Under the pieces are notes generated by a model. It ran no database searches. It was not told the DNA's origin and saw nothing but the letters and a program-made list of their open reading frames with translations. 64,000 nt of DNA from Escherichia coli (GTDB lineage: Bacteria; Pseudomonadota; Gammaproteobacteria; Enterobacterales; Enterobacteriaceae): NCBI RefSeq assembly GCF_009931435.1, contig NZ_CP043414.1, one strand, 5' to 3'. This document shows, one piece after another, positions 1 through 64,000 of this stretch; positions within the stretch are counted from its first letter, which is position 1; every line of letters starts with the position of its first letter. Both the position numbers and the translations under genes were made by a program.

Positions 1-1802
1 GAGTAATAGATGTAGAACGGAATCATCGGCAGATTGTTGGTGCTGTAAGAAGTCGCCGCTGCCAGCCAGGAACAACCTGCGCCCAGCTCGTTGATCCCTT
101 CTTGCAGAATCTGACCTTTCTCGTCTTCTTTATAGTAAGCAACCTGCTCGCGGTCCTGCGGGGTGTACTGCTGACCGTTCGGGCTGTAAATACCAATCTG
201 ACGGAACAGACCTTCCATACCGAAAGTACGCGCTTCGTCGGCGATGATCGGCACCAGACGATCTTTGATCGACTTGTTCTTCAGCATCACGTTCAGGGCA
301 CGAACGAAAGCGATAGTGGTAGAGATCTCTTTGCTCTGCTCTTCCAGCAGCGCGCCGAAGTCTTGCAAGCTCGGCAGCTCCAGCTTCTCGGTGAAGTTCG
401 GCTGGCGGCTTGGCAGATAACCGTGCAATTTCTGACGCTGAGCGTGCAGATAGGTATGCTCTTCAGAACCTTCCGGGAAGGTGATGTACGGCAGTTTTTC
501 GATATCAGCATCAGACACCGGCACATTGAAACGGTCGCGGATATGACGCACGCCGTCCATGTTCATTTTCTTAACCTGGTGCGCGATGTTTTTACCTTCA
601 GCTGCGTCGCCCATGCCGTAACCTTTAATGGTATGAGCAAGGATTACTGTCGCTTTGCCTTTGGTTTCCTGCGCTTTCTTGAATGCAGCGTAGATTTTCT
701 TCGGATCGTGACCACCACGGTTCAGCGCCCAGATCTGCTCGTCAGTCCAGTCTGCAACCAGAGCTGCGGTTTCCGGATATTTACCGAAGAAGTGTTCACG
801 AACATACGCACCATCTTTCGATTTGAAGGTCTGGTAATCGCCGTCAACGGTTTCGTTCATCAGCTGGATCAGTTTACCGCTGGTATCTTTACGCAGCAGT
901 TCGTCCCAACGGCTACCCCACATCACTTTGATCACGTTCCAGCCAGCACCTTCGAAGATGCCTTCCAGTTCGTTGATGATCTTGCCGTTACCGGTGACCG
1001 GGCCGTCAAGACGCTGCAGGTTACAGTTGATAACGAAGACCAGGTTATCCAGTTTTTCACGGGTAGCGATGGTGATCGCACCTTTGGATTCCGGTTCGTC
1101 CATCTCGCCGTCGCCGAGGAAGGCGTAAACGGTCTGTTTAGAAGTATCTTTCAGGCCACGGTGTTCCAGATATTTCAGGAATTTAGCCTGGTAAATAGCA
1201 CCAATCGGACCCAGACCCATAGATACGGTCGGGAACTGCCAGAATTCCGGCATCAGTTTCGGGTGCGGATAGGAAGAGAGGCCATTGCCGTGAACTTCCT
1301 GACGGAAGTTATCCAGCTGCTCTTGAGTCAGACGACCTTCCAGGAAAGCACGTGCGTAAATGCCCGGGGAGATGTGGCCCTGGAAGTAAACCAGGTCGCC
1401 GCCATCCTGCTCGTTGCGTGCACGGAAGAAGTGGTTAAAGCACACATCATAAATGGTTGCGGACGACTGGAAGGACGCCATGTGGCCGCCCAGTTCGAGG
1501 TCTTTTTTCGACGCACGCAGAACCGTCATGATGGCGTTCCAGCGGATAGCTGAACGAATACGGCGTTCCAGTTCCAGATTACCCGGATACTCCGGTTGTT
1601 CTTCAACGGGGATGGTGTTGATGTAGTTGCTGATACCGGTGCCTGCGGCTACGTTGACACCGCCTTTGCGGGCTTCAGCAAGCAGTTGGTCGATCAGATA
1701 CTGAGCACGCTCAACACCTTCTTCACGGATGACCGATTCGATCGCCTGGAGCCAGTCGCGAGTTTCGATCGGATCCACGTCATTTGGGAAACGTTCTGAC
1801 AT
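1..1802 (-). CDS. aceE: Pyruvate dehydrogenase E1 component, N-terminal ~600 codons (3' end lies beyond window start)
   Basis: Reverse-complement of 1741-1802 translates MSERFPNDVDPIETRDWLQAI; reverse-complement of 1-120 gives ...EKGQILQEGINELGAGCSWLAAATSYSTNNLPMIPFYIYY, matching remembered AceE. Not in ORF track because no stop in window. The + strand track ORF 102..1553 is its antisense shadow. Confidence 0.93.
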   Translation of the reverse strand, partial: MSERFPNDVDPIETRDWLQAIESVIREEGVERAQYLIDQLLAEARKGGVNVAAGTGISNYINTIPVEEQPEYPGNLELERRIRSAIRWNAIMTVLRASKKDLELGGHMASFQSSATIYDVCFNHFFRARNEQDGGDLVYFQGHISPGIYARAFLEGRLTQEQLDNFRQEVHGNGLSSYPHPKLMPEFWQFPTVSMGLGPIGAIYQAKFLKYLEHRGLKDTSKQTVYAFLGDGEMDEPESKGAITIATREKLDNLVFVINCNLQRLDGPVTGNGKIINELEGIFEGAGWNVIKVMWGSRWDELLRKDTSGKLIQLMNETVDGDYQTFKSKDGAYVREHFFGKYPETAALVADWTDEQIWALNRGGHDPKKIYAAFKKAQETKGKATVILAHTIKGYGMGDAAEGKNIAHQVKKMNMDGVRHIRDRFNVPVSDADIEKLPYITFPEGSEEHTYLHAQRQKLHGYLPSRQPNFTEKLELPSLQDFGALLEEQSKEISTTIAFVRALNVMLKNKSIKDRLVPIIADEARTFGMEGLFRQIGIYSPNGQQYTPQDREQVAYYKEDEKGQILQEGINELGAGCSWLAAATSYSTNNLPMIPFYIYY

Positions 1803-1962
1803 GGGTTATTCCTTATCTATCTAATAACGTTGAGTTTTCTGGAACCTGTCCCATTGAACTCTCGCCGGAAAGCTCAATAAGACAGGTTCTACGTTTAGTT
1901 GCCGCGCTTTTATATGCGCTTGATTTACAACATCTTCTGGATAATTTTTACCAGAAAAATCA

Positions 1963-2727
1963 CTAATTCTTTCGTTGTTCCAGACGACGCAGAGAACGCT
2001 CACGGCGGCTCTCTTCACGGCTTCTGTCGAGCAAAATTTCTTCGATAAAGGCCAGATGGCGATGCGATGCTTCGCGCGCTTCTTCCGGCTTACCGGCCAT
2101 AATCGCTTCGAATATGCGAGTGCGGTGACTACTCACCAGCGGCAGCATCTCGCGACGCGAATAGAGCAATTCGAAGTTCTGACGGACATTCTGAGCCAAC
2201 ATCGGCTCCATACACCTTAGCAGATGAAGCAGAACTACATTGTGGGCTGCTTCGGTGACGGCAATCTGATACTGGAGGACGGCGTTTGATTCCGCGTCCA
2301 GATCGCCAGACTGCTGCGCCAGCTCTATGGCGTGGTGGAGTTCACGGATGCGTTCCTTGTCTTCATCGGTACTACGCAGCGCGGCGTAATAGGCGGCGAT
2401 ACCTTCCAGGGCGTGTCGTGTTTCGAGCAAGTCATACTGTGATTCAGGATGGTCGGAGAGCAGCTCCACCAGCGGATCGCTGAAACTTTGCCAGAGGCTG
2501 CTCTGAACAAAAGTGCCGCCACCCTGGCGACGAAGCAACAAGCCCTTTGCTTCGAGACGTTGAATCGCCTCACGCAAGGAGGGACGGGAGACGTCGAACT
2601 GTTTCGCCAGTTCGCGTTCCGGTGGGAGTTTTTCGCCCGGGCGGAGTGTGCCTTCGAGGATCAAAAACTCCAGTTGCTGCTCAATCACATCGGAGAGTTT
2701 TGGTTGGCGGATTTTGCTGTAGGCCAT
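1963..2727 (-). CDS. pdhR: Pyruvate dehydrogenase complex repressor (GntR family), 254 aa
   Basis: Track ORF 1963..2760 trimmed to internal Met ([14 protein letters not shown]...) that matches the known 254-aa PdhR; ATG at 2725-2727. Confidence 0.93.
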
Positions 2728-2758
2728 GAGTTCCTGTCTTAAGCCACTTGCCGAAGTC

Positions 2759-2775
2759 AATTGGTCTTACCAATT
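2759..2775. promoter_or_regulatory. PdhR operator palindrome AATTGGTCTTACCAATT in pdhR promoter region
   Basis: Perfect inverted repeat ATTGGT-N3-ACCAAT read directly in sequence about 32 bp upstream of the pdhR start; matches the PdhR box consensus from memory. Confidence 0.7.
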
Positions 2776-3179
2776 TCATGTCTGTGACGCTAAAGTAACA
2801 AAGTATTCACCTCATGTCCATACAGGTTTTGATTGAAATCATGAAACTGTGCACATTTTAACAAGTTGACATATATAACGTTTCAAAGTTGTAACTATGC
2901 ACAAATGTAGACTTTACGTAGGAAAGGGATTTTTTAACGATTATTAAACTATAAAAATCCGAATTGAACCGATTCACTTACCAATTTATCGATTTTTAAT
3001 TCAAAAATAATGAATTTATATTCATTTTGTATGTTGAGGGGATTTGAGGCTGACCTTTACAAACGGTTCCTTTTTAAGCAACTCATCTTCAACCATGCAT
3101 AAAGCGGGTGCATTCGCTGCCGCATACCATTATTCTTTATCTGACGGAAGTCCTTTTGTAACAATTCAAACGTCTTTGA

Positions 3180-3197
3180 TGTAAACAAATTAATACA
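3180..3197. promoter_or_regulatory. Putative TyrR box (TGTAAACAAATTAATACA) in aroP promoter region
   Basis: Matches TGTAAA-N6-TTTACA consensus with 2 mismatches in right half; aroP is a known TyrR regulon member. Exact site assignment not verified. Confidence 0.4.
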
Positions 3198-3267
3198 AAA
3201 AACGGAATTGCAAACTTACACACGCATCACTGCGTAGATCAAAAAAACAATCACCGCACGAGGTTTC

Positions 3268-4641
3268 ATGATGGAAGGTCAACAGCACGGCGAGCAGCTA
3301 AAGCGCGGCCTTAAAAACCGCCATATTCAGCTTATCGCGCTGGGTGGCGCGATAGGGACCGGGCTATTTCTGGGTAGCGCCTCCGTAATACAGTCCGCAG
3401 GGCCAGGGATTATCCTGGGTTACGCCATTGCTGGTTTTATCGCCTTTCTGATCATGCGTCAGCTAGGTGAAATGGTGGTCGAAGAACCTGTCGCAGGCTC
3501 CTTTAGCCACTTTGCTTATAAATACTGGGGTAGCTTTGCCGGTTTCGCTTCTGGCTGGAACTACTGGGTACTGTACGTTTTAGTTGCCATGGCAGAGCTG
3601 ACTGCCGTGGGTAAATACATTCAGTTCTGGTATCCGGAAATCCCCACCTGGGTTTCTGCCGCCGTGTTCTTTGTGGTGATCAACGCCATCAACCTGACAA
3701 ACGTAAAAGTGTTTGGCGAGATGGAGTTCTGGTTTGCCATTATCAAAGTTATCGCAGTGGTGGCGATGATCATCTTCGGCGGCTGGCTACTGTTCAGTGG
3801 CAACGGCGGCCCGCAGGCGACCGTTAGCAACCTGTGGGATCAAGGTGGTTTCCTGCCGCACGGCTTTACCGGACTGGTGATGATGATGGCGATTATCATG
3901 TTCTCTTTCGGCGGTCTGGAACTGGTGGGGATCACCGCAGCAGAAGCTGATAATCCGGAGCAAAGTATCCCGAAAGCAACTAACCAGGTTATCTACCGCA
4001 TCCTGATTTTCTATATTGGTTCGTTAGCCGTTCTGCTCTCGCTGATGCCATGGACCCGCGTTACTGCTGATACCAGTCCGTTTGTACTGATCTTCCACGA
4101 ATTGGGCGATACCTTTGTGGCTAATGCGCTGAACATCGTGGTACTGACTGCTGCGCTCTCCGTGTACAACAGCTGCGTATATTGCAACAGCCGTATGCTG
4201 TTTGGTCTGGCACAACAGGGCAACGCGCCAAAAGCGCTGGCGTCTGTCGACAAACGCGGTGTACCGGTTAACACTATTCTGGTGTCTGCGCTGGTTACGG
4301 CATTGTGCGTGCTGATTAACTACCTTGCACCGGAATCCGCATTCGGACTGTTAATGGCGCTGGTGGTATCTGCACTGGTCATCAACTGGGCGATGATTAG
4401 CCTGGCGCATATGAAATTCCGTCGCGCCAAGCAGGAACAAGGCGTGGTAACTCGCTTCCCTGCTCTGCTTTATCCGCTGGGTAACTGGATCTGCCTGCTG
4501 TTTATGGCGGCGGTACTGGTGATTATGCTGATGACCCCAGGAATGGCGATTTCGGTATACCTGATCCCGGTATGGCTGATCGTGTTAGGTATCGGCTATC
4601 TGTTTAAAGAGAAAACCGCCAAAGCCGTAAAAGCGCATTAA
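3268..4641 (+). CDS. aroP: Aromatic amino acid:H+ symporter, 457 aa
   Basis: Track ORF; translation MMEGQQHGEQLKRGLKNRHIQLIALGGAIGTGLFLG... matches remembered AroP over its full length. Confidence 0.96.
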   Translation: MMEGQQHGEQLKRGLKNRHIQLIALGGAIGTGLFLGSASVIQSAGPGIILGYAIAGFIAFLIMRQLGEMVVEEPVAGSFSHFAYKYWGSFAGFASGWNYWVLYVLVAMAELTAVGKYIQFWYPEIPTWVSAAVFFVVINAINLTNVKVFGEMEFWFAIIKVIAVVAMIIFGGWLLFSGNGGPQATVSNLWDQGGFLPHGFTGLVMMMAIIMFSFGGLELVGITAAEADNPEQSIPKATNQVIYRILIFYIGSLAVLLSLMPWTRVTADTSPFVLIFHELGDTFVANALNIVVLTAALSVYNSCVYCNSRMLFGLAQQGNAPKALASVDKRGVPVNTILVSALVTALCVLINYLAPESAFGLLMALVVSALVINWAMISLAHMKFRRAKQEQGVVTRFPALLYPLGNWICLLFMAAVLVIMLMTPGMAISVYLIPVWLIVLGIGYLFKEKTAKAVKAH

Positions 4642-4650
4642 TCTCTCTAC

Positions 4651-4675
4651 GCCCTCACCCGTGCAGGGTGAGGGC
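4651..4675. terminator. Bidirectional intrinsic terminator hairpin between convergent aroP and ampE
   Basis: GCCCTCACCC-gtgca-GGGTGAGGGC perfect 10-bp stem read in sequence, located between the aroP stop (4641) and ampE stop (4684). Confidence 0.65.
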
Positions 4676-4683
4676 AATAATCT

Positions 4684-5538
4684 TTACACCAACGCCCCGT
4701 AAATCGTCAGTAGCGCAATTACCACCACGACCACGAACGAGGTTTTCTTCGCCATGGAAACCGCTGCCTTCGGCGTCTCCACCTTATCGACATGCGGTTC
4801 ACGCGCCAGAGAGAACTGTGCCAGACGTGTTAATACCTGATATTGCGAAGTATGGAAATCACCCAGCGAAGCAAACCAGGCCGGTAACGCTTTTTCCCCA
4901 TGACCGATCAAGGCATATACCACACCCGCAAGACGAACCGGCACCCAATCCAGTACATGAAGCACGGCATCAATGCCGGACTGTAAACGATGATGCGGCG
5001 TCTGGTAACGCGCCAGCCAGTATTGCCATGCACGCAAAAACGCATACCCCATCAGCGTAACGGGTCCCCAGGTTCCCCCCACAATCAGCCAGAACAACGG
5101 AGCAAGATAAAAACGAAAGTTAATCCACAGCAATGCATTTTGCAGCTCACGCAAATACTCACGTTCATCGCAGCCTGCTGGGACGCCGTGAATCATGGTG
5201 AGTTCGCCAGCCATCGTGGCACGGGCATGGCTATCATTACGTGAAGCAGCTGTCAGATAAGCATGATAATGAAGACGAACTTTACCTGCGCCAATACACA
5301 GCAAACCAATCAGCAGCCACACCAGCAGCGTGGGAACGTTGAACAATACTCCCTGCAATGCGCGTAACAGTAAAAAAGTCACGCCCATCGCAATAATGGT
5401 CATGCCTAATGTGCGCCCGAGAGAAAAATGTTTCACCCGCCGGAAGAACGCCTCAAGACGATGATCAAGCTGCCAGTGCTCGCCCAGCTTAAACAGGCGC
5501 TCGAAAATTAACACCAATAGGGTTGTAAACAGCGTCAT
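4684..5538 (-). CDS. ampE: AmpE inner membrane protein, 284 aa
   Basis: Track ORF 4684..5577 trimmed to [22 protein letters not shown]... (known AmpE N-terminus); start overlaps ampD stop by 4 nt. Confidence 0.93.
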
Positions 5539-6086
5539 GTTGTCTCCTTGCTGACCAGGGCGCGAAACCGTGCCCAATCAAAGGCGGGGCCGGGATCGGT
5601 TTTCCGATCCGGCGCAATATCACAATGGCCCGTCATGTTATTAGCGATATCTGGATAGCGATCAATCAGTGCCCGCGTAACCGCCGCAAGCTGTTGATAC
5701 TGCGCATCGGTATACGCCAGCGTATCGGTGCCTTCCAGCTCAATCCCAATAGAAAAATCATTGCAGCGTTCGCGCCCCTGATACTGAGAGACTCCGGCAT
5801 GCCAGGCACGTTTATCGAAAGGAACATACTGGACTATTTCACCATCGCGGCGAATCAAACAGTGAGCGGAGACGCGCAAATGGGCGATCTCAGCAAAGAA
5901 AGGATGTGCCTGCGGATCAATAGTTCCAGTGAATAATGCGTCGATCCACGGACCGCCAAACTCGCCTGGCGGCAGGCTAATATTGTGCACCACCAGCAGG
6001 GTGGGTGTTTCGTCATCCGGGCGGCAATCGTAATGTGGTGAGGGAACGCGGCGCGCGCCAACCAGCCACCCCTGTTCTAACAACAT
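5535..6086 (-). CDS. ampD: 1,6-anhydro-N-acetylmuramyl-L-alanine amidase, 183 aa
   Basis: Track ORF; [45 protein letters not shown]... matches AmpD. Confidence 0.95.
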
Positions 6087-6113: not shown

Positions 6114-7067
<954 letters not shown>

Positions 7068-7269
7068 TTGCTGACAGATTTATCCGCTCCATCGCGGGCG
7101 GATAATCTCCCCTTTCCCAACTTTCTTCGTAACGCCTCGCAAATTTCTTGTCTTTCGCTGCAACGTAATAAAAAACTCCGGAAGCTGCTTTCCCGTTTCG
7201 TTTTTTGCCCCTCGCTTGTGCTGATGGCGTTTGCCAAAGTAGCGCCAACCAAATCAAGGAGCGAAACAA

Positions 7270-7710
7270 ATGGACAAGCAACGCGGTTTTACACTTATCG
7301 AACTGATGGTGGTTATTGGCATCATTGCCATTTTAAGCGCCATTGGTATTCCCGCTTATCAAAACTACCTGCGCAAAGCCGCACTCACCGACATGCTACA
7401 AACCTTTGTGCCTTACCGTACCGCCGTAGAGTTGTGCGCGCTGGAACATGGTGGATTAGATACCTGCGACGGTGGCAGCAATGGCATTCCCTCGCCTACC
7501 ACCACCCGCTATGTTTCAGCCATGAGTGTGGCAAAGGGCGTGGTGTCGCTGACCGGGCAAGAAAGTCTCAATGGGCTAAGCGTCGTTATGACACCGGGTT
7601 GGGATAACGCAAACGGCGTCACCGGCTGGACGCGCAACTGCAATATTCAAAGTGACAGCGCATTGCAGCAAGCCTGCGAAGATGTCTTTCGCTTTGATGA
7701 CGCCAACTAA
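7270..7710 (+). CDS. ppdD: Type IV prepilin-like protein (prepilin peptidase-dependent protein D), 146 aa
   Basis: Track ORF; MDKQRGFTLIELMVVIGIIAILSAIGIPAYQNY... carries the class-III signal/N-methylation motif G-FTLIE. Confidence 0.95.
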   Translation: MDKQRGFTLIELMVVIGIIAILSAIGIPAYQNYLRKAALTDMLQTFVPYRTAVELCALEHGGLDTCDGGSNGIPSPTTTRYVSAMSVAKGVVSLTGQESLNGLSVVMTPGWDNANGVTGWTRNCNIQSDSALQQACEDVFRFDDAN

Positions 7711-13202: not shown

Positions 13203-13306
13203 GTCGGATGCAGCGCGAACGCCTTATCCGACCTGCAAGATCTTTTATATCAATGTGTTAAAAAATTGTAGGCCTGATAAGACGCGCCAGCGTCGCATCA
13301 GGCATC
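13203..13306. repeat. BIME: two REP (repetitive extragenic palindrome) units between convergent yacG and mutT
   Basis: GTCGGATGCAGCGCGAACGCCTTATCCGAC and TGTAGGCCTGATAAGACGCGCCAGCGTCGCATCAGGCATC read in sequence; classic REP consensus. Confidence 0.85.
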
Positions 13307-52277: not shown

Positions 52278-53156
52278 TTATGACAACTTGACGGCTACAT
52301 CATTCACTTTTTCTTCACAACCGGCACGGAACTCGCTCGGACTGGCCCCGGTGCATTTTTTAAATACTCGCGAGAAATAGAGTTGATCGTCAAAACCAAC
52401 ATTGCGACCGACGGTAGCGATAGGCATCCGTGTGGTGCTCAAAAGCAGCTTCGCCTGACTAATGCGTTGGTCCTCGCGCCAGCTTAAGACGCTAATTCCT
52501 AACTGCTGGCGGAACAGATGCGACAGACGCGACGGCGACAGGCAGACATGCTGCGCGACGCTGGCAATATCAAAATTGCTGTCTGCCAGGTGATCGCTGA
52601 TGTACTGACAAGCCTCGCGTACCCGATTATCCATCGGTGGATGGAGCGACTCGTTAATTGCTTCCATGCGCCGAAGTAACAATTGCTCAAGCAGATTTAT
52701 CGCCAGCAGCTCCGAATAGCGCCCTTCCCCTTGCCCGGCGTTAATGATTTGCCCAAACAGGTCGCTGAAATGCGGCTGGTGCGCTTCATCCGGGCGAAAG
52801 AAACCGGTATTGGCAAATATTGACGGCCAGTTAAGCCATTCATGCCAGTAGGCGCGCGGACGAAAGTAAACCCACTGGTGATACCATTCGCGAGCCTCCG
52901 GATGACGACCGTAGTGATGAATCTCTCCTGGCGGGAACAGCAAAATATCACCCGGTCGGCAGACAAATTCTCGTCCCTGATTTTTCACCACCCCCTGGCC
53001 GCGTATGGTGAGATTGAGAATATAACCCTTCATTCCCAGTGGTCGGTCGATAAAAAAATCGAGATATCCGTTGGCCTCAATCGGCGTTAAACCCGCCACC
53101 AGATGGGCGTTAAACGAGTATCCCGGCAGCAGGGGATCATTTTGCGCTTCAGCCAT
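52278..53156 (-). CDS. araC: Arabinose operon regulator AraC, 292 aa
   Basis: Track ORF 52278..53207 trimmed to [49 protein letters not shown]... Confidence 0.95.
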
Positions 53157-53184
53157 ACTTTTCATACTCCCGCCATTCAGAGAA

Positions 53185-53205
53185 GAAACCAATTGTCCAT
53201 ATTGC
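53185..53205. promoter_or_regulatory. araO2 AraC half-site (DNA looping operator) in araC leader
   Basis: AACCAATTGTCCATATTGCAT contains the TCCATA AraC half-site motif, ~280 bp upstream of PBAD as expected. From memory, not verified. Confidence 0.5.
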
Positions 53206-53363
53206 ATTAGACATTGCCGTCACTGCGTCTTTTACTGGCTCTTCTCGCTAATCCAACCGGTAACCCCGCTTATTAAAAGCATTCTGTAACAAAGCGGGAC
53301 CAAAGCCATGACAAAAACGCGTAACAAAAGTGTCTATAATCACGGCAGAAAAGTCCACATTGA

Positions 53364-55196
<1,833 letters not shown>

Positions 55197-55206
55197 GGAC
55201 ACGACA

Positions 55207-56709
55207 ATGACAATTTTTGATAATTATGAAGTGTGGTTTGTAATTGGCAGCCAGCATCTGTATGGTCCGGAAACCCTGCGTCAGGTCACCCAACATGCCG
55301 AGCACGTCGTTAATGCGCTGAATACGGAAGCGAAACTGCCCTGCAAACTGGTGCTGAAACCGCTGGGCACCACGCCGGATGAAATCACCGCTATTTGCCG
55401 TGACGCGAATTACGACGATCGTTGCGCTGGTCTGGTGGTGTGGCTGCACACCTTTTCCCCGGCCAAAATGTGGATCAACGGCCTGACCATGCTCAACAAA
55501 CCGTTGCTGCAATTCCACACCCAGTTCAACGCGGCGCTGCCGTGGGATAGCATCGATATGGACTTTATGAACCTGAACCAGACTGCACATGGCGGTCGCG
55601 AGTTCGGCTTCATTGGCGCGCGTATGCGTCAGCAACATGCTGTCGTTACCGGTCACTGGCAGGATAAACAAGCACATGAGCGTATCGGCTCCTGGATGCG
55701 TCAGGCGGTCTCTAAACAGGATACCCGTCATCTGAAAGTTTGCCGCTTTGGCGATAACATGCGTGAAGTGGCGGTCACCGATGGCGATAAAGTTGCCGCA
55801 CAAATCAAATTCGGTTTCTCCGTCAATACCTGGGCAGTTGGCGATCTGGTGCAGGTGGTGAACTCCATCAGCGATGGCGATGTTAACGCGCTGGTCGATG
55901 AGTACGAAAGCTGCTACACCATGACGCCTGCGACACAAATCCACGGCGAAAAACGGCAGAACGTGCTGGAAGCTGCGCGTATTGAGCTGGGGATGAAGCG
56001 TTTCCTGGAACAAGGTGGCTTCCATGCGTTCACCACCACCTTTGAAGATTTGCACGGTCTGAAGCAGCTTCCAGGCCTGGCCGTGCAGCGTCTGATGCAG
56101 CAGGGCTACGGCTTTGCGGGCGAAGGCGACTGGAAAACTGCCGCCCTGCTTCGCATCATGAAAGTGATGTCAACCGGTCTGCAGGGCGGCACCTCCTTTA
56201 TGGAGGACTACACTTACCACTTCGAAAAAGGTAATGACCTGGTGCTCGGCTCCCATATGCTGGAAGTCTGTCCGTCGATCGCCGTAGAAGAGAAACCGAT
56301 CCTCGACGTTCAACACCTCGGGATTGGCGGTAAAGACGATCCTGCCCGCCTGATCTTCAATACCCAAACTGGTCCGGCGATTGTCGCCAGCTTGATTGAT
56401 CTCGGCGATCGTTACCGTCTGCTGGTTAACTGCATCGACACGGTGAAAACGCCGCACACCCTGCCGAAACTGCCGGTGGCGAATGCGCTGTGGAAAGCGC
56501 AGCCGGATCTACCAACCGCTTCCGAAGCGTGGATCCTTGCTGGTGGCGCGCACCACACCGTCTTCAGCCATGCGTTGAACCTCAACGATATGCGCCAGTT
56601 TGCCGAGATGCACGACATTGAAATCACGGTGATTAATAACGACACCCGCCTGCCAGCGTTTAAAGACGCGCTGCGCTGGAACGAAGTGTATTACGGATTT
56701 CGTCGCTAA
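55207..56709 (+). CDS. araA: L-arabinose isomerase, 500 aa
   Basis: Track ORF; [49 protein letters not shown]... Confidence 0.96.
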
Positions 56710-56712
56710 GTA

Positions 56713-56810
56713 GCCGCATCAGGTATGTAACGCCTGATGCGACGCTGACGCGTCTTATCTGGCCTACACGTTCCGATTTTGTAGGCCGGATAAGCAAAGC
56801 GCATCCGGCA
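56713..56810. repeat. REP-like palindromic units in araA-araD spacer
   Basis: GCCGCATCAGGTATGTAACGCCTGATGCGACGC...TGTAGGCCGGATAAGCAAAGCGCATCCGGCA read in sequence; REP family by consensus. Confidence 0.75.
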
Positions 56811-56813
56811 TTC

Positions 56814-56856
56814 TTTTCCCCCTCGCCCCTTTGGGGAGAGGGCCGGGGTGAGGGGA
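56814..56856. repeat. GC-rich imperfect palindrome (boxC-like) immediately upstream of araD SD
   Basis: TTTTCCCCCTCGCCCCTTTGGGGAGAGGGCCGGGGTGAGGGG; CCCCTCGCCCC pairs with GGGGTGAGGGG. Family assignment (boxC-like) is from memory and uncertain. Confidence 0.45.
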
Positions 56857-56877
56857 AACGACCTCTCAGGAGTCAAC

Positions 56878-57573
56878 ATGTTAGAAGATCTCAAACGTCA
56901 GGTTTTAGAAGCCAACCTGGCGCTGCCAAAACACAACCTGGTCACGCTGACCTGGGGCAACGTCAGCGCCGTTGATCGCGAGCGCGGCGTCTTTGTAATC
57001 AAACCTTCCGGCGTCGATTACAACGTCATGACCGCTGACGATATGGTCGTGGTCAGCATCGAAACCGGTGAAGTGGTTGAAGGTACGAAAAAGCCCTCCT
57101 CCGACACGCCAACTCACCGGCTGCTCTATCAGGCATTCCCGTCCATTGGCGGCATTGTGCATACGCACTCCCGCCACGCCACCATCTGGGCGCAGGCGGG
57201 CCAGTCAATTCCGGCAACCGGCACCACCCACGCCGACTATTTCTACGGCACCATTCCCTGCACTCGCAAAATGACCGACGCAGAAATCAACGGCGAATAT
57301 GAGTGGGAAACCGGTAACGTCATCGTTGAAACTTTCGAAAAACAGGGTATCGACGCAGCGCAAATGCCTGGCGTTCTGGTCCATTCTCACGGCCCGTTTG
57401 CATGGGGTAAAAACGCTGAAGACGCAGTGCATAACGCCATCGTGCTGGAAGAAGTCGCTTATATGGGGATTTTCTGCCGCCAGCTTGCTCCGCAGTTACC
57501 GGATATGCAGCAAACATTGCTGGATAAACACTATCTGCGTAAGCATGGTGCGAAGGCATATTACGGGCAGTGA
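56878..57573 (+). CDS. araD: L-ribulose-5-phosphate 4-epimerase, 231 aa
   Basis: Track ORF 56848..57573 trimmed to [48 protein letters not shown]... Confidence 0.95.
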
Positions 57574-57578
57574 TTTAA

Positions 57579-57612
57579 GAGAAGCATCTGGGTAACAGGT
57601 GCTTCTTTTTTA
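57579..57612 (+). terminator. Intrinsic terminator after araD
   Basis: AGAAGCATCTG-ggtaac-AGGTGCTTCT (one mismatch in stem) followed by TTTTTTATTAT, 6 nt after the araD stop. Confidence 0.65.
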
Positions 57613-57619
57613 TTATCAC

Positions 57620-58063
57620 TCAGGCAGCAAGAAAAATTTCTGCCCCTATTCCCTCAATTAACAGTGCTTCTAATGAAGGGGCAATATACACCGCATCATC
57701 AAGATCTAAATTACCAAAACCGACGAGATATAAACCAAACCCCTCTTTTCCTTCGGCATAAAAAATCACTTTTCCGCCTTCATCATCGCCAATCGCCAGA
57801 GCGTGTGGAATATAATCCTGAATATGGTATGCGGCATTCATCTCACTACAGCCTGCGGCTCCCCAAATTCTGATATAAGACGTTGAATCCATCACTTTTA
57901 ATTCAACGTCTGCCATCAGAGTAATAAAGGTTAAATACTCATCAGGAATTGCAATGTGAAAATAATTTTTTATAAGTTGACCGAGTCCACTATAATCTAA
58001 TACGGGTTCCCATGACGCCAGCGTGAATTTTTCATGCAATTTAACAATAGGAAACTTACTCAT
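57620..58063 (-). CDS. Hypothetical protein, 147 aa, SUKH/SMI1-KNR4-like (putative immunity protein)
   Basis: Track ORF; ATG start overlaps upstream ORF stop (ATGA). Segments IPDEYLTFITL, ALAIGDDEGGKVIFY, GLYLVGFGNLDLDDAVYIAPSLEALL resemble the SMI1/KNR4 (SUKH-1) pattern. Assignment by eye only. Confidence 0.6.
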   Translation of the reverse strand: MSKFPIVKLHEKFTLASWEPVLDYSGLGQLIKNYFHIAIPDEYLTFITLMADVELKVMDSTSYIRIWGAAGCSEMNAAYHIQDYIPHALAIGDDEGGKVIFYAEGKEGFGLYLVGFGNLDLDDAVYIAPSLEALLIEGIGAEIFLAA

Positions 58064-58407
58064 TTCATCATCCTTTTCTTATACTTCTGGGGTAAAATAT
58101 CCGTTATAACGCCTTCACCTATAAATCCGGCTTCCCACAGCAGAAACTCACTGCCACAGCTGATCCACGGCATTACAAGTTCAGGATTTAAAAACGCCAT
58201 CTCAAGATTGTGTACCATTTCGCCAGGGTGAATCGTTTTTCCATAGCCGTCGATGTAAATCCGGCAGCCATAACCATATGAAGATAACTCATTAATCCCT
58301 TTAAAAAAGACAGGACAGCCGTAAAAACGGTTAGATGATAACAAAGGGCCACGATGCGATTTTTGCGTTGAAGAGTATAGTGTAATGGTAATCCGAACCT
58401 TTCTCAT
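58060..58407 (-). CDS. Hypothetical protein, 115 aa, no recognisable family
   Basis: Track ORF; ATG preceded by GGAGGG SD (minus strand TTCGGAGGGAAGATG); translationally coupled to the downstream SUKH-like ORF (4-nt overlap). Confidence 0.6.
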   Translation of the reverse strand: MRKVRITITLYSSTQKSHRGPLLSSNRFYGCPVFFKGINELSSYGYGCRIYIDGYGKTIHPGEMVHNLEMAFLNPELVMPWISCGSEFLLWEAGFIGEGVITDILPQKYKKRMMK

Positions 58408-58419
58408 CTTCCCTCCGAA

Positions 58420-58752
58420 TTAATTACGCTCTTCAATCAAATATGTCGTTTTATTAGTCCAGGCGATTATTTTATAGGGTCTGTTAATAATACCTTTCTG
58501 CGTATAATCAGCCATAATTTCTGATGGATACCAACCATAACCAAAGCAAAATAAAGCACCTACATTAATAAGCTCACTAATTACACTTAGTTTCTCATTT
58601 TCATTACTGGTATTTTTGCTAAATCGATCATTGTCGGCAGAAAAACCCAACCGTTGCATTTTTTCAACGTTATCATATCCGGTCACTACCGTTTCAATGA
58701 AATTATCACTTATGCTAACCACTATAATACAATCGCTCGGCAGTGTGTTCAT
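58420..58752 (-). CDS. Hypothetical protein, 110 aa, no recognisable family
   Basis: Track ORF; ATG start; 12-nt gap to next ORF; AT-rich upstream region 58753-58975 likely holds the promoter. Confidence 0.55.
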   Translation of the reverse strand: MNTLPSDCIIVVSISDNFIETVVTGYDNVEKMQRLGFSADNDRFSKNTSNENEKLSVISELINVGALFCFGYGWYPSEIMADYTQKGIINRPYKIIAWTNKTTYLIEERN

Positions 58753-58975
58753 TTCCCCTTGATCCTTCTAAAGTCATTTTTTCACCACAACAATGAATTC
58801 AATAGATATAATGAATATATGCAGCCATTTATATATAATTAGCATTACACCCTAATGCCTTAATATAACCCAAACAGAAATCGTCCGATAATCAGAAAAT
58901 GTAATCATTGAATAAAGCAGGAACCTTTTTATCGCATGAGAAACCGAAGATGGTTGATGCCGTTTCGTCAAACAT

Positions 58976-58995
58976 TACTGTACAAAATATCAGTG
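58976..58995. promoter_or_regulatory. LexA-box-like sequence upstream of polB (one mismatch to CTGT-N8-ACAG)
   Basis: TACTGTACAAAATATCAGTG: CTGT-N8-TCAG. polB is a known SOS gene; the K-12 box as I recall (CTGTATAAAACCACAG) is a perfect match, this one is not. Confidence 0.45.
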
Positions 58996-59001
58996 TTCAG
59001 T

Positions 59002-59034
59002 AAAAAACCAGGCTATAATCAAGCCTGGTTTTTT
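59002..59034. terminator. A-run/hairpin/T-run element just upstream of polB (hairpin loop contains TATAAT)
   Basis: AAAAAACCAGGCTATAATCAAGCCTGGTTTTTT; perfect 7-bp stem CCAGGCT/AGCCTGG. Could terminate transcription from either side and/or supply the polB -10. Confidence 0.55.
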
Positions 59035-59048
59035 GATGGATTTTCAGC

Positions 59049-61400
59049 GTGGCGCAGGCAGGTTTTATCTTAACCCGACACTGGCGGGACACCCCGCAAG
59101 GGACAGAGGTCTCCTTCTGGCTGGCGACGGACAACGGGCCGTTGCAGGTTACGCTTGCACCGCAAGAGTCCGTGGCGTTTATTCCCGCCGATCAGGTTCC
59201 CCGCGCCCAGCATATTTTGCAGGGTGAACAAGGCTTTCGCCTGACGCCGCTGGCGTTAAAGGATTTTCATCGCCAGCCGGTGTATGGCCTTTACTGTCGC
59301 GCCCATCGCCAGTTAATGAATTACGAAAAGCGCCTGCGTGAAGGTGGCGTTACCGTCTACGAGGCCGATGTGCGCCCGCCAGAACGCTATCTGATGGAGC
59401 GGTTTATCACCTCACCGGTGTGGGTCGAGGGTGATATGCGCAATGGCGCTATCGTTAATGCCCGTCTGAAACCGCATCCCGACTACCGCCCGCCGCTCAA
59501 GTGGGTTTCTATTGATATTGAAACCACCCGCCACGGTGAACTGTACTGCATCGGTCTGGAAGGCTGCGGGCAGCGCATCGTTTATATGCTGGGGCCGGAG
59601 AATGGCGATGCCTCCGCGCTTGATTTCGAACTGGAGTACGTCGCCAGTCGTCCGCATCTGCTGGAAAAACTCAACGCCTGGTTTGCTAACCACGATCCCG
59701 ATGTGATCATCGGCTGGAACGTGGTGCAATTCGATCTGCGAATGCTGCAAAAACATGCCGAGCGTTATCGTATTCCGCTGCGGCTGGGGCGCGATAACAG
59801 TGAGCTGGAGTGGCGCGAGCACGGCTTTAAAAACGGTGTCTTTTTTGCCCAGGCCAAAGGGCGGCTAATTATCGACGGTATCGAGGCACTGAAATCCGCG
59901 TTCTGGAATTTCTCTTCATTCTCGCTGGAAACCGTCGCTCAGGAGTTATTAGGCGAAGGAAAATCTATCGATAACCCGTGGGATCGGATGGACGAAATTG
60001 ACCGCCGTTTCGCCGAAGATAAACCTGCGCTAGCAACTTATAACCTGAAAGATTGCGAACTGGTGACGCAGATCTTCCACAAAACTGAAATCATGCCGTT
60101 TTTACTCGAACGAGCGACGGTTAACGGCCTGCCGGTAGATCGGCACGGGGGATCGGTGGCGGCGTTTGGTCATCTCTATTTTCCGCGAATGCATCGCGCT
60201 GGTTATGTCGCGCCTAATCTCGGCGAAGTGCCGCCGCACGCCAGCCCTGGCGGCTATGTGATGGATTCGCGGCCTGGGCTTTATGATTCGGTACTGGTGC
60301 TGGACTATAAAAGCCTGTACCCGTCGATCATCCGCACCTTTCTGATTGATCCCGTCGGACTGGTAGAAGGTATGGCGCAGCCTGATCCAGAGCACAGTAC
60401 CGAAGGCTTTCTCGATGCCTGGTTCTCGCGGGAGAAACATTGCCTGCCGGAGATTGTGACTAACATCTGGCACGGGCGCGATGAAGCCAAACGCCAGGGC
60501 AATAAACCGCTGTCGCAGGCGCTGAAGATCATTATGAATGCCTTTTACGGCGTGCTCGGTACTACCGCCTGTCGCTTCTTCGATCCGCGCCTGGCATCGT
60601 CGATCACCATGCGTGGTCATCAGATCATGCGGCAAACCAAAGCGTTGATTGAAGCGCAGGGCTACGACGTGATCTACGGCGATACCGACTCAACGTTTGT
60701 CTGGCTGAAAGGCGCACATTCGGAAGAAGAAGCGGCGAAAATCGGTCGTGCACTGGTGCAGCACGTTAACGCCTGGTGGGCAGAAACGTTGCAACAGCAA
60801 CGGCTGACTAGCGCACTGGAATTGGAGTATGAAACCCATTTCTGCCGTTTTCTGATGCCAACCATTCGCGGAGCCGATACCGGCAGTAAAAAACGTTATG
60901 CCGGGCTGATTCAGGAGGGCGATAAGCAGCGGATGGTGTTTAAAGGGCTGGAAACCGTGCGCACCGACTGGACACCGCTGGCCCAGCAGTTTCAGCAGGA
61001 GCTATATCTACGTATCTTCCGCAACGAGCCATATCAGGAGTACGTCCGCGAAACCATCGACAAACTGATGGCTGGCGAACTGGATGCACGGCTGGTTTAC
61101 CGTAAACGCCTTCGCCGTCCACTGAGCGAATACCAGCGTAATGTGCCGCCTCATGTACGCGCCGCACGCCTTGCGGATGAAGAAAACCAAAAGCGCGGTC
61201 GCCCCTTGCAATATCAGAACCGCGGCACCATTAAGTACGTATGGACCACCAACGGCCCGGAGCCGCTGGACTACCAACGTTCACCGCTGGATTACGAACA
61301 CTATCTGACCCGCCAGCTACAACCCGTGGCGGAGGGAATACTCCCTTTTATTGAGGATAATTTTGCTACACTTATGACCGGGCAACTTGGGCTATTTTGA
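59049..61400 (+). CDS. polB: DNA polymerase II (family B), 783 aa, GTG start
   Basis: Track ORF; (M)[40 protein letters not shown]...; exonuclease and polymerase motifs (YGDTDS) present. Confidence 0.96.
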
Positions 61401-61563
61401 GCAAAAAAAGAGTTCGCCAGATACCATTTTGATGCGTGACGAATGCTTTGCCATCCAGTACCATAGCGCCCTTTCCATTCCTGGACCTGAATAACACCAC
61501 TACCTCATAAGCACGGTAGCGGGTGGTTATTGCCTGCAATTAAAGATATAGAGCCGAACACAT

Positions 61564-64000
61564 ATGCCTTTTACACTTGGTCAACGCTGGATCAGCGATA
61601 CAGAAAGCGAATTGGGACTTGGAACCGTTGTCGCGGTGGATGCGCGAACTGTCACTTTACTTTTCCCATCTACTGGTGAAAACCGTCTGTACGCACGCAG
61701 TGATTCCCCCGTGACCCGCGTGATGTTCAACCCTGGTGATACCATTACCAGCCATGACGGCTGGCAGATGCAAGTCGAAGAAGTAAAAGAAGAAAATGGC
61801 TTGCTGACCTATATCGGTACTCGCCTGGATACTGAAGAGTCCGGCGTAGCCCTGCGTGAAGTTTTCCTTGATAGCAAACTGGTGTTCAGCAAACCGCAGG
61901 ACCGTCTGTTTGCCGGGCAGATTGACCGTATGGACCGCTTTGCGCTGCGTTATCGCGCACGTAAATATTCCAGCGAACAGTTCCGTATGCCGTACAGCGG
62001 CCTGCGCGGTCAGCGTACCAGCCTGATCCCCCATCAGCTCAACATCGCTCATGATGTTGGTCGCCGCCATGCGCCGCGCGTCCTGCTGGCTGACGAAGTG
62101 GGTTTAGGGAAAACCATTGAAGCCGGGATGATCCTGCATCAGCAACTGCTCTCTGGCGCTGCTGAACGTGTACTGATTATCGTCCCGGAAACCTTACAGC
62201 ATCAGTGGCTGGTAGAAATGCTGCGCCGTTTCAACCTGCGTTTTGCCCTGTTTGATGATGAGCGTTACGCCGAAGCCCAGCACGACGCTTACAACCCGTT
62301 CGACACCGAACAGCTGGTGATTTGTTCGCTGGATTTTGCCCGTCGTAGCAAACAGCGTCTGGAACATCTCTGTGAAGCCGAATGGGACCTGCTGGTGGTC
62401 GATGAAGCGCATCACCTGGTGTGGAGCGAAGATGCGCCGAGCCGTGAATATCAGGCCATTGAACAACTGGCAGAGCATGTGCCCGGCGTTCTGCTGCTGA
62501 CTGCGACCCCGGAACAACTGGGGATGGAAAGCCACTTCGCCCGTCTGCGCCTGCTGGACCCGAACCGTTTCCACGATTTCGCGCAGTTCGTTGAAGAGCA
62601 GAAAAATTATCGTCCAGTAGCAGATGCCGTTGCCATGCTGCTGGCAGGTAACAAACTGAGCAATGATGAACTGAACATGCTCGGTGAGATGATCGGCGAG
62701 CAGGATATTGAGCCGTTACTGCAGGCGGCAAACAGCGACAGCGAAGATGCCCAGAGCGCCCGTCAGGAACTGGTTTCCATGCTGATGGATCGCCACGGCA
62801 CCAGCCGCGTGCTGTTCCGTAACACGCGTAACGGTGTGAAAGGCTTCCCGAAACGCGAGCTGCACACTATTAAGCTGCCGCTGCCGACGCAGTATCAGAC
62901 GGCGATTAAAGTGTCCGGCATTATGGGCGCACGTAAAAGTGCCGAAGATCGCGCTCGCGATATGCTCTACCCGGAGCGTATTTATCAGGAATTTGAAGGC
63001 GATAACGCCACCTGGTGGAACTTCGATCCGCGCGTTGAGTGGCTGATGGGCTACCTGACCAGCCATCGCTCTCAGAAAGTGCTGGTGATCTGCGCTAAAG
63101 CCGCTACCGCGCTGCAACTGGAGCAGGTACTGCGTGAGCGTGAAGGTATCCGCGCCGCGGTGTTCCACGAAGGCATGTCGATTATTGAGCGTGACCGCGC
63201 TGCGGCATGGTTTGCCGAAGAAGACACCGGCGCGCAGGTGCTGCTGTGTTCGGAAATCGGTTCTGAAGGGCGTAACTTCCAGTTCGCCAGCCACATGGTA
63301 ATGTTCGATCTGCCGTTCAACCCGGATCTGCTGGAGCAGCGTATTGGTCGTCTGGATCGTATCGGTCAGGCGCACGATATTCAGATCCATGTGCCTTATC
63401 TGGAAAAAACCGCTCAGTCGGTACTGGTACGCTGGTATCACGAAGGTCTGGATGCATTCGAGCACACCTGCCCGACCGGACGCACTATCTACGATAGCGT
63501 GTATAACGATCTGATTAACTACCTGGCCTCACCGGATCAAACCGAAGGCTTTGACGATCTGATCAAAAACTGCCGCGAGCAGCACGAGGCGTTGAAGGCA
63601 CAGCTGGAACAGGGTCGTGACCGCCTGCTGGAGATCCATTCCAACGGTGGCGAAAAAGCGCAGGCATTAGCTGAAAGCATTGAAGAGCAGGATGACGATA
63701 CCAACCTGATCGCCTTCGCCATGAACCTGTTCGATATTATCGGTATCAATCAGGACGATCGCGGCGACAACATGATCGTGCTGACGCCGTCCGATCATAT
63801 GCTGGTGCCGGACTTCCCGGGCCTGTCGGAAGATGGCATCACCATCACCTTTGATCGTGAAGTGGCGCTGGCGCGTGAAGATGCGCAGTTTATTACCTGG
63901 GAGCATCCGCTGATCCGCAACGGTCTGGATCTGATCCTCTCTGGCGATACCGGTAGCAGCACGATTTCACTGTTGAAAAACAAAGCGTTGCCGGTAGGTA
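61564..64000 (+). CDS. rapA: RNA polymerase-associated Swi2/Snf2 ATPase RapA (HepA), N-terminal ~812 codons (3' end beyond window)
   Basis: ATG at 61564 gives [47 protein letters not shown]...; helicase motifs DEVGLGKT and DEAHH read downstream. No stop in window so absent from track. Confidence 0.93.

Follow-up and report, generated by a model that had tools for sequence, protein, structure and literature searches.

A rare AT-rich segment between araD and polB in Escherichia carries a predicted orphan operon of three unrelated immunity genes

Introduction

The closest described systems to the locus reported here are the heterogeneous polyimmunity loci of Zhang, Iyer, Aravind et al. 2012 (PMC3482391), which that paper presents as co-directional, probably polycistronic and strain-variable sets of structurally unrelated immunity genes. 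[quoted passage not shown] Furthermore, Rhs loci with orphan C-terminal toxin/immunity cassettes are known from Salmonella (PMC3967940).

Here we analyse a segment lying between araD and polB in a 64-kb stretch of Escherichia coli DNA, hereafter referred to as the window. A preliminary description of this DNA gave the segment no function; the evidence now points to an orphan immunity operon. We consider it likely that this islet is an orphan heterogeneous polyimmunity operon acting against polymorphic toxins of the Rhs type that reach the cell through type VI secretion. Operons of this kind are known; the two immunity families of ORF2 and ORF3, together with their partner toxin domains, are absent from Pfam, NCBIfam and PADLOC. 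Our literature search, which was incomplete in its coverage, returned nothing on the araD–polB site.

As described in PMC3482391, the polyimmunity loci share with the islet a tandem arrangement of co-directional, closely spaced small genes, with one hairpin after the last gene in the islet. The three islet families are likewise structurally unrelated, each occupying the immunity slot beside toxin C-terminal domains, a SUKH member is present, no full toxin gene is adjacent, and the content varies between strains. However, judging from the same text, the islet differs from these loci in having no adjacent recombinase, in lying in a core intergenic gap where it has co-diverged with the chromosome, and in that two of its three families match no Pfam family; the loci termed 'extended' have four or more genes, whereas the islet has three. 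Neither 'EF-Tu' nor 'elongation factor' was found in the first 300,000 of the 357,715 characters of that paper. Like the orphan immunity genes reported for Bacteroidales and Serratia, the islet genes have no cognate effector in cis and are proposed to be protective, and SUKH-type proteins are prominent there. Those genes, however, come with experimental protection data and are often borne by mobile elements or located within effector loci, whereas the islet is chromosomal, lacks mobility genes and offers a protection that is only predicted. The Rhs orphan cassettes (PMC3967940; Rahnella aceris pPlas2, L010) use the same immunity families, and relatives of ORF1–3 fill their 'immunity' slot exactly, usually with a 4-nt overlap with the toxin stop codon. 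In contrast to these cassettes, the islet has no Rhs core repeats, toxin tips or VgrG/PAAR neighbours, and consists of immunity genes only, packed together.

Structure and composition of the segment

The araD stop (57573) and the polB start (GTG, 59049) are 1475 bp apart in the window, whereas the corresponding distance is 74 bp in XL1-Blue, a K-12 derivative, in good agreement with the value of about 75 bp given for K-12 in the preliminary description. The LexA-type box of polB (CTGTACAAAATATCAG) aligns with CTGTATAAAACCACAG in K-12, where the box stands directly 3' of the araD stop codon; the extra DNA thus corresponds to about 57574–58976 (Table 1). This DNA is compositionally foreign. Its GC content is 0.34–0.42 along its length (mean 0.377), as against 0.55–0.58 in the flanks and 0.524 for the window, and the GC3 of its three ORFs (0.31, 0.43 and 0.31) is well below that of araD and polB (0.62–0.63), so that the AT-richness previously reported by eye holds when composition is computed.

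Table 1. Features of the araD–polB region of the window
Feature	Position	Strand	Remarks
AT-rich accessory segment, ~1.4 kb	57574..58976		Limits from alignment with the K-12 intergenic region; absent from K-12
Terminator-like hairpin and T-run	57577..57612	+	Adjoins the araD 3' end and, on the opposite strand, the ORF1 stop
ORF1, 147 aa	57620..58063	-	Putative SUKH-1/SMI1-KNR4 protein
ORF2, 115 aa	58060..58407	-	Predicted stand-alone EF-Tu domain III-like beta-barrel
ORF3, 110 aa	58420..58752	-	Unnamed alpha/beta protein
Non-coding leader, AT-rich (GC 0.33)	58753..58976	-	5' of ORF3; the promoter of the joint transcript is presumed to lie here
LexA-type box of polB, CTGTACAAAATATCAG, CTG-N10-CAG	58978..58993	+	Unique match; right-hand boundary; belongs to polB, outside the islet
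Hairpin and T-run just 5' of the polB start	59001..59035	+	Common to K-12 and E. fergusonii; core sequence, outside the islet

The anatomy of the three minus-strand genes is as first described, with a 12-nt gap between ORF3 and ORF2 and a 4-nt ATGA overlap between ORF2 and ORF1, and a Shine-Dalgarno-like sequence precedes all three starts. A consensus scan of the leader found no strong sigma-70 match, the promoter being presumed to lie there. Both flanking hairpins and the LexA-like box mentioned in the preliminary description were recovered. The hairpin between araD and ORF1 consists of a 14-pair stem and a 5-nt loop (57577–57609) followed by a T-run, is 100% conserved in strain 2014C-3075, and probably ends both convergent transcripts.

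An integrative element or classical genomic island was considered and rejected, since neither an integrase nor convincing repeats were found. The window ORFs and features at the islet include no integrase, IS or tRNA, and the sole flanking repeat is imperfect (18 nt, 83%, 57511–57528 and 58969–58986) and may be due to chance, consistent with the earlier reading that integrase, IS and obvious direct repeats are lacking. The phage collection contained no DNA match to the islet, and Rfam yielded nothing in 57400–59200.

Spurious ORFs in AT-rich DNA were ruled out by dN/dS, homologues and confident folds. The AlphaFold models of the islet ORFs have pLDDT values of 91–93, and their dN/dS values are 0.11–0.59 overall, with 0.11–0.19 for ORF1 and 0.26–0.59 for ORF2 and ORF3 (0.02–0.05 for the flank genes). 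Purifying selection acts on the islet ORFs.

Distribution and age

A comparison with complete E. coli genomes bore out the view of the islet as a rare accessory segment: it is present in 2 of the 5426 genomes (same site, 91% identity) and absent from the remaining 5424, most of which (5396) match only query positions 1432–1475 (59005–59048), the last 44 bp. Besides the window, the islet occupies the same site in three divergent Escherichia (2014C-3075, SCU-301 and Escherichia sp. MOD1-EC7003). All three genes are intact in the window, whereas 2014C-3075 and SCU-301 have a frameshift in ORF2, and MOD1-EC7003 has a truncated ORF3. In E. fergusonii, the araD–polB gap holds other cargo, namely DUF6348 and DUF218 together with a mosaic version of the islet's SUKH gene, the only one of the three to survive there; this different cargo upholds the earlier proposal of a variable integration site. 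The gap is thus a long-lived variable site in the genus, and carriage of the islet sets a divergent Escherichia lineage apart from E. coli proper.

In comparisons with 2014C-3075, the dS of the islet genes is 0.20–0.28, and that of araD and polB is 0.28 and 0.21, respectively. As the dS of the islet equals that of its flanks, the islet has co-diverged with the chromosome. A recent insertion was therefore rejected, and the picture of fresh integration conveyed previously does not survive this result and the presence of the islet at the same site in three divergent Escherichia. A narrow scan of species genomes with the ORF2 alignment matched only Escherichia sp. MOD1-EC7003 and Superficieibacter electus. 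The same three genes were also found, in the same order and at ~78% identity, in a locus with a different flank (L012), and the dN/dS of the islet genes against this copy is below 1 even at a dS of 0.6–1.1. The retention of gene order in L012 could hint at joint working of the three genes.

The three proteins and their toxin partners

ORF1 matched the Pfam SMI1_KNR4 model (PF09346) with a weak score (E 7.3e-4, 20.6 bits) over nearly the whole domain (ORF1 residues 33–136; model positions 12–124 of 125) and PDB entry 3d5p with an E value of 1.5e-4. Its relatives have a precomputed PF09346 match and the NCBI name SMI1/KNR4. These weak but consistent matches suggest that ORF1 belongs to the SUKH-1/SMI1_KNR4 family. 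Homologues of ORF1 (51–55% identity) lie directly 3' of Rhs/PAAR proteins or of orphan fragments, in each case with Tox-SHH (PF15652) at the C-terminus, starting 7–8 nt past the toxin or overlapping it by 4 nt. This layout was found in Pluralibacter gergoviae, Photorhabdus australis and Cronobacter dublinensis, and in one metagenome contig, where the preceding protein is at least 1064 aa long. Many SUKH-1/SMI1-KNR4 proteins pair with an HNH-fold nuclease toxin, as do the relatives of ORF1 with Tox-SHH; for ORF1 itself, in contrast, the pairing is deduced from the 51–55% homologues. ORF1 is thus predicted to confer immunity to Rhs nuclease toxins of the Tox-SHH type (HNH fold). Two genes of a Cronobacter array, encoding 116 aa and 110 aa, were considered as counterparts of ORF3 and ORF2, to which they are similar in size, and were discarded, their sequences being unrelated.

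No Pfam match was found for ORF2, even at E≤10, and only 2 of its 62 relatives reached GTP_EFTU_D3 (PF03143) at E≤0.001 (6 of 62 at E≤0.1). Its model nevertheless has the three-dimensional fold of EF-Tu domain III, and we therefore regard ORF2 as being, in its predicted structure, a stand-alone copy of this fold. Proteins of this type differ from EF-Tu domain III in standing alone, with ~100 aa and no GTPase domain or domain II, in having only 16–19% sequence identity to EF-Tu, and in their genomic context, which is that of toxin and immunity genes rather than translation. A full HMMER search revealed a family of at least 477 clusters, all unannotated, whereas a word-indexed protein search gave only three close clusters.

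Relatives of ORF2 (32–43% identity) lie directly 3' of one shared toxin domain in four contigs with an intact toxin. The toxin tip stands behind an Rhs core ending in a DPLGL motif in L024, behind a YD-repeat protein in L023 and behind a truncated upstream ORF in L020; in L035, the relative follows a stand-alone toxin of 143 aa. The fifth contig (L034) has a degraded copy of the same toxin 5' of the ORF2 relative, at the head of an array of 10 small co-directional genes. The motifs of this toxin are IYRAV ... KYFT[TS]S, and ORF2 is accordingly predicted to confer immunity to this unnamed C-terminal domain of Rhs/YD toxins (IYRAV/KYFTTS). The best Pfam match of the toxin was ART-PolyVal, at an E value of 0.42, and NCBIfam and PDB yielded nothing for it. 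The tip carries Arg and S-T-S motifs, as in ADP-ribosyltransferases, and the label 'ADP-ribosyltransferase-like' comes solely from motifs read by eye. One ORF2 relative, from Variovorax, had no obvious toxin neighbour, and a toxin-like match in Nonomuraea had no ORF2-like gene 3' of it.

No Pfam match was found for ORF3, and the word-indexed search gave only three close clusters; the ORF3 family as a whole comprises about 63 clusters. A homologue from Rahnella aceris (42% identity) has a 4-nt overlap with the stop codon of an orphan fragment from an Rhs C-terminus, within a T6SS-Rhs array that also carries an Imm15 gene. Six metagenome loci likewise have an ORF3 relative behind the same toxin tip, which in one of them belongs to an Rhs protein of at least 1333 aa, bringing to seven the loci in which the ORF3 family is paired with the GNDYFLGPGQ tip. 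The motif of this toxin is ...GNDYFLGPGQHLPGGAPE...VNVN, and ORF3 is a predicted immunity protein against this second unnamed Rhs C-terminal toxin domain, for which Pfam recognised the Rhs core part only and NCBIfam and PDB nothing. The PDB sequence search was equally devoid of meaningful matches for ORF2 and ORF3.

Proposed function and alternative explanations

The three genes would be co-transcribed, in the order ORF3-ORF2-ORF1, from the leader to the hairpin at the araD end, giving three small cytoplasmic proteins, each from a different immunity family. Each protein may bind one class of incoming toxin tip in a 1:1 manner and block it: Tox-SHH nucleases in the case of ORF1, the unnamed tip with the IYRAV/KYFTTS motifs for the ORF2 barrel, and the unnamed tip with the GNDYFLGPGQHLPGGAPE motif for ORF3. 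The carrier cell would thereby survive attack by neighbours armed with such toxins. Thus, the islet most likely enables this unusual Escherichia strain to withstand three kinds of toxin injected by rival bacteria, a testable role as a predicted shield, and such shields can decide strain coexistence in the gut. Two unannotated toxin-immunity pairings are also exposed, each with a consistent partner toxin domain and ready for experiments. Immunity specificity is usually narrow, and the identity of the islet proteins to their toxin-linked relatives is 32–55%; we infer from sequence the actual toxin variants that ORF1–3 would neutralise.

The three toxin tips and an Rhs core were searched against the 64-kb window with tblastn, and nothing better than an E value of 0.25 was obtained. 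None of the three genes occupies the position of a cognate Rhs immunity gene (rhsI) in the window, a position held by their relatives elsewhere. The label 'orphan' follows from this lack of Rhs in the window, although the relatives adjoin Rhs in other genomes. Orphan status is that seen within 64 kb, and the cognate toxin is presumed to be absent from the rest of the genome; one encoded elsewhere could make these genes 'displaced' rather than orphan.

Since single genes are broken in other carriers, nearly all E. coli do without the segment, and ORF2 and ORF3 are under far more relaxed constraint than the flanks, the segment might be regarded as a decaying relic of an ancestral Rhs/polymorphic-toxin island, with immunity genes that have no present role. 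We consider this improbable, because the three ORFs are intact in the window, with ribosome-binding sites, and dN/dS stays below 1 over the long divergence from L012. Moreover, no remnants of Rhs cores or toxins lie between or beside the genes, whereas decaying Rhs arrays keep them interleaved.

The proteins could also constitute one functional module, for example of a phage-defence or toxin-antitoxin-like nature, rather than independent immunity proteins. The order and tight coupling of the genes persist in four versions from Escherichia as well as in the L012 copy with its unrelated flank, and the operon resembles many defence islets in being AT-rich and accessory. However, every family is found elsewhere without the other two and beside its own toxin, ORF2 or ORF3 has been lost separately in different lineages while the remainder stayed under purifying selection, and E. 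fergusonii retains the SUKH gene alone. None of the three proteins has a recognisable enzymatic or toxic domain, or a match in NCBIfam or PADLOC (PADLOC-DB v2, E≤0.1), and PHROGs gave weak matches for ORF1 and ORF3 only, to families of unknown function. A single module is therefore very unlikely. Finally, although a few ORF2 relatives match GTP_EFTU_D3, it is scarcely credible that ORF2 is an EF-Tu domain III paralogue acting on translation (e.g. binding EF-Ts, tRNA or an EF-Tu partner) with the other two genes as unrelated passengers, given that, outside orphan sites, each of the five contexts examined places the gene 3' of the same toxin domain, that members of the family are found in arrays of small genes resembling immunity genes or are fused to other immunity-like domains (P0037), and that the gene is dispensable in sister lineages.

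Within the preferred reading of an orphan polyimmunity operon, the ORF2 family might confer immunity through target or cofactor mimicry, with the free domain III mimicking a surface of EF-Tu that the neighbouring toxin must bind or modify. This idea is tentative and we hold it to be rather unlikely; if true, it would point to EF-Tu-directed Rhs toxins of a new class, recognising domain III. Our literature search, again of incomplete coverage, found no work linking EF-Tu domain III to immunity proteins, and a free-standing copy of this domain in an immunity slot is a concrete lead on the origin of immunity proteins. EF-Tu recurs as a theme in toxin biology: CDI and Rhs toxins have been described for which it serves as cofactor or target (PMC5737660; PMC9825190; bioRxiv 2025.10.28.685041). 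The EF-Tu-dependent toxins considered in the present work use the G domain or, as reported in PMC5737660, domain 2.

Structure and boundaries of the araD–polB islet

The araD stop (57573) and the polB GTG start (59049) are separated by 1475 bp in the window and by 74 bp in a K-12 derivative (XL1-Blue), in agreement with the preliminary description, which gave 1475 bp and about 75 bp for K-12. In the K-12 derivative, the araD stop codon is followed immediately by a LexA box (CTGTATAAAACCACAG), then by a hairpin and polB. A LexA-type box and the same hairpin are retained in the window, so the extra DNA spans approximately positions 57574–58976. The AT-richness attributed to this islet was borne out by its GC content (0.377 vs. 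0.524 in the window) and by the GC3 of its genes (0.31–0.43 vs. 0.62–0.63 for araD and polB). ORF calling recovered the three minus-strand genes described, with a 12-nt gap and a 4-nt ATGA overlap between them, and the hairpins and LexA-like box said to flank them were also located. A Shine-Dalgarno-like sequence, read from the DNA, precedes each of the three starts, and a consensus scan for a promoter of the islet genes yielded no clear match. As previously noted for integrases, IS and direct repeats, the islet has neither an integrase, IS or tRNA nor a convincing flanking repeat. An imperfect 18-nt direct repeat (83% identical), located at 57511–57528 (inside the araD 3' end) and 58969–58986 (immediately left of the LexA-type box), approximately brackets the islet and may be due to chance or be a vestige of the original recombination event.

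Features of the araD–polB intergenic region (window coordinates)
Feature	Coordinates	Strand	Length	Remarks
Terminator-like hairpin	57577–57609			Between the convergent araD and ORF1 ends
ORF1	57620–58063	minus	147 aa
ORF2	58060–58407	minus	115 aa
ORF3	58420–58752	minus	110 aa
LexA-type box	58978–58993			CTGTACAAAATATCAG; retained in the window
Hairpin	59001–59035			Same as in K-12, before polB; retained in the window

Protein families and their toxin neighbours

ORF1 belongs to the SUKH-1/SMI1-KNR4 family (Pfam, E = 7e-4; PDB 3d5p, E = 1.5e-4). In Pluralibacter gergoviae, Photorhabdus australis and Cronobacter dublinensis, relatives with 51–55% identity are found in the immunity slot, next to Rhs toxins whose C-terminal domain is Tox-SHH, a nuclease domain of the HNH fold. 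In a metagenome contig, that slot is taken by a relative with 55% identity, and the preceding long protein is of no assigned type.

Neither ORF2 nor ORF3 was assigned to a family by Pfam, NCBIfam or PADLOC, and their genomic context was examined in a handful of family members. For ORF2, a word-indexed search retrieved three clusters only, and a full HMMER profile search retrieved 477 clusters (E ≤ 0.001), most of them of free-standing proteins about 100 aa long. The ORF2 model, obtained with a 62-sequence alignment (pLDDT 93.3), is predicted to be a stand-alone barrel resembling EF-Tu domain III. In four independent contigs, ORF2 relatives (about 34–43% identity) were located directly 3' of one common toxin domain, with the consensus IYRAV…G.EGKYFT[TS]S…YA.QAV.AF.D.PYTIV…VD.GIPAYV.P, which lies behind an Rhs core ending in a DPLGL motif (L024), a YD-repeat protein frameshifted in the assembly (L023) or a truncated upstream ORF (L020), or forms a 143-aa stand-alone toxin (L035). 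A degraded copy of the same toxin precedes the ORF2-family gene in a fifth contig (L034). The toxin has no relative in the PDB and is absent from Pfam, where its best hit is ART-PolyVal (E = 0.42), and its Arg and S-T-S motifs look, by eye only, like those of ADP-ribosyltransferases. An alternative role of ORF2 in translation is disfavoured, since its toxin neighbourhood is consistent.

The fifth contig (Logan SRR22296346) carries ten co-directional small genes at 425–4755, with the ORF2-family gene first and the pseudogenised toxin tip upstream; besides a DUF7660 protein, the array includes a second ORF2 paralogue (1959–2297). It resembles an extended polyimmunity locus. Another ORF2-family protein (P0037, 217 aa) has a C-terminal fusion to a domain bearing the motif YGGMGSFNDLILH, which in Rahnella is a separate gene directly after an orphan Rhs tip (L010, 9405–9713). 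P0037 is probably a two-domain polyimmunity protein, and the fused domain a further unnamed immunity family.

The ORF3 model was confident (pLDDT 90.8) and had no fold match in the PDB. ORF3 resembles 63 AFDB50 clusters of uncharacterised proteins of about 110 aa from Proteobacteria and Bacteroides. In Rahnella aceris pPlas2, an ORF3 relative (42% identity) within a T6SS-Rhs array overlaps the stop codon of an orphan Rhs C-terminal fragment by 4 nt. In six metagenome loci, an ORF3-type gene follows the same toxin tip as in Rahnella (…GNDYFLGPGQHLPGGAPE…VNVN), which belongs to an Rhs of at least 1333 aa in one of them and has no match in Pfam, NCBIfam or the PDB.

Possible role of the islet

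Judging from these contexts, each of the three ORFs is from a family that fills the immunity slot of a different Rhs toxin tip, with identities of 32–55% to toxin-linked relatives. The 64-kb window has no detectable Rhs core or toxin tip, and the neighbours of the islet are araD and polB. All three genes are under purifying selection (dN/dS 0.11–0.59). ORF2 is frameshifted in E. coli 2014C-3075 and SCU-301, ORF3 is truncated in Escherichia sp. MOD1-EC7003, and only the SUKH gene of the three remains in E. fergusonii; each gene is individually dispensable. Purifying selection combined with individual dispensability is the pattern expected of independently acting immunity genes in one transcript, and the family contexts suggest that the proteins would likely bind and block incoming toxin tips 1:1. 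The view that the three genes form one three-part system is disfavoured by the occurrence of the families in independent contexts, the independent decay of the genes and the lack of a defence-system match. That the islet is a non-functional remnant of an Rhs island is also disfavoured, as the ORFs are intact, dN/dS is below 1 over a large dS and there are no interleaved toxin fragments.

Loci of this kind are already known: the islet matches the heterogeneous polyimmunity locus defined in the 2012 census (Zhang et al. 2012, PMC3482391) and resembles orphan immunity genes under study in gut bacteria. The predicted immunity family with an EF-Tu domain III fold, the ORF3 family, the partner toxin domains of ORF2 and ORF3, and the araD–polB gap as a conserved variable site appear to be undescribed. 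The terms "EF-Tu" and "elongation factor" were not found in the accessible part of the census text, and a literature search of incomplete coverage identified no paper linking EF-Tu domain III to immunity proteins. Several CDI and Rhs toxins are known to target EF-Tu or to use it as a cofactor, via its G domain or domain 2. It seems rather unlikely that the EF-Tu-like protein acts as a mimic of EF-Tu to neutralise its toxin.

Distribution and age

The islet is rare, with only two carriers (2014C-3075 and SCU-301; same site, 91% identity) among 5426 complete E. coli genomes; in 5396 others, the match was limited to the final 44 bp beside polB. Among 100,044 species representatives, close ORF2 relatives were found only in MOD1-EC7003, where it is again located beside araD, and in Superficieibacter electus (48% identity), at a different genome location. 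The S. electus gene is the second of a tandem pair of EF-Tu domain III-like genes (101 and 104 aa; L019 5657–6315, L022 7657–8315) between yciB and yciA; there is no toxin in the vicinity, and the pair is another orphan doublet within a core intergenic gap. One metagenome contig (L012) carries the whole trio at 78% identity, with unrelated flanks.

Comparison of the window with 2014C-3075 gave a synonymous divergence of 0.20–0.28 in the islet genes, against 0.28 in araD and 0.21 in polB. The islet has thus diverged together with its flanks and did not arrive recently. Either loss from E. coli proper or gain by the window's group may explain the distribution. The best identity to any of the 5426 genomes was 96.8% for araA–araD and 97.9% for polB; on sequence grounds, the source is not a typical E. 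coli and probably belongs to a divergent or cryptic Escherichia lineage. Identity to MOD1-EC7003 is about 95%. A 3032-bp metagenome contig (L026, ERZ1034915) has an ORF3 99% identical and an ORF2 identical to those of the window, so the window's lineage is present in at least one sequenced community.

Variation at and near the araD–polB gap

In E. fergusonii (CP099328, L002), the gap contains DUF6348, SUKH and DUF218 genes, and this different cargo indicates that the site has long been variable in the genus. Over its 3' 359 bp, the SUKH gene is 97.8% identical to ORF1 (window 57620–57978; L002 6086–6444), but the 5' end, which encodes the N-terminal ~30 aa, is unrelated, placing a recombination breakpoint within the gene. 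The DUF218 gene and the 393-aa DUF6348 gene lie at 5278–5886 and 6515–7696, and the 3' end of the former extends through the LexA-type box (CTGTACAAAACAACAG). Identity to L002 steps across the islet, from 91.3% on the ara side (52925–57571) to 97.8% on the polB–rapA side (58978–64000); the gap may be a recombination junction.

In keeping with the shorter araA–araD spacer proposed in the preliminary description, a stretch of about 99 bp (56715–56813) in this spacer is present once in the window and aligns twice in 2014C-3075, SCU-301 and MOD1-EC7003. A 37-bp piece of the extra copy in these carriers matches window positions 13267–13303, so the stretch is probably a REP-type repeat.
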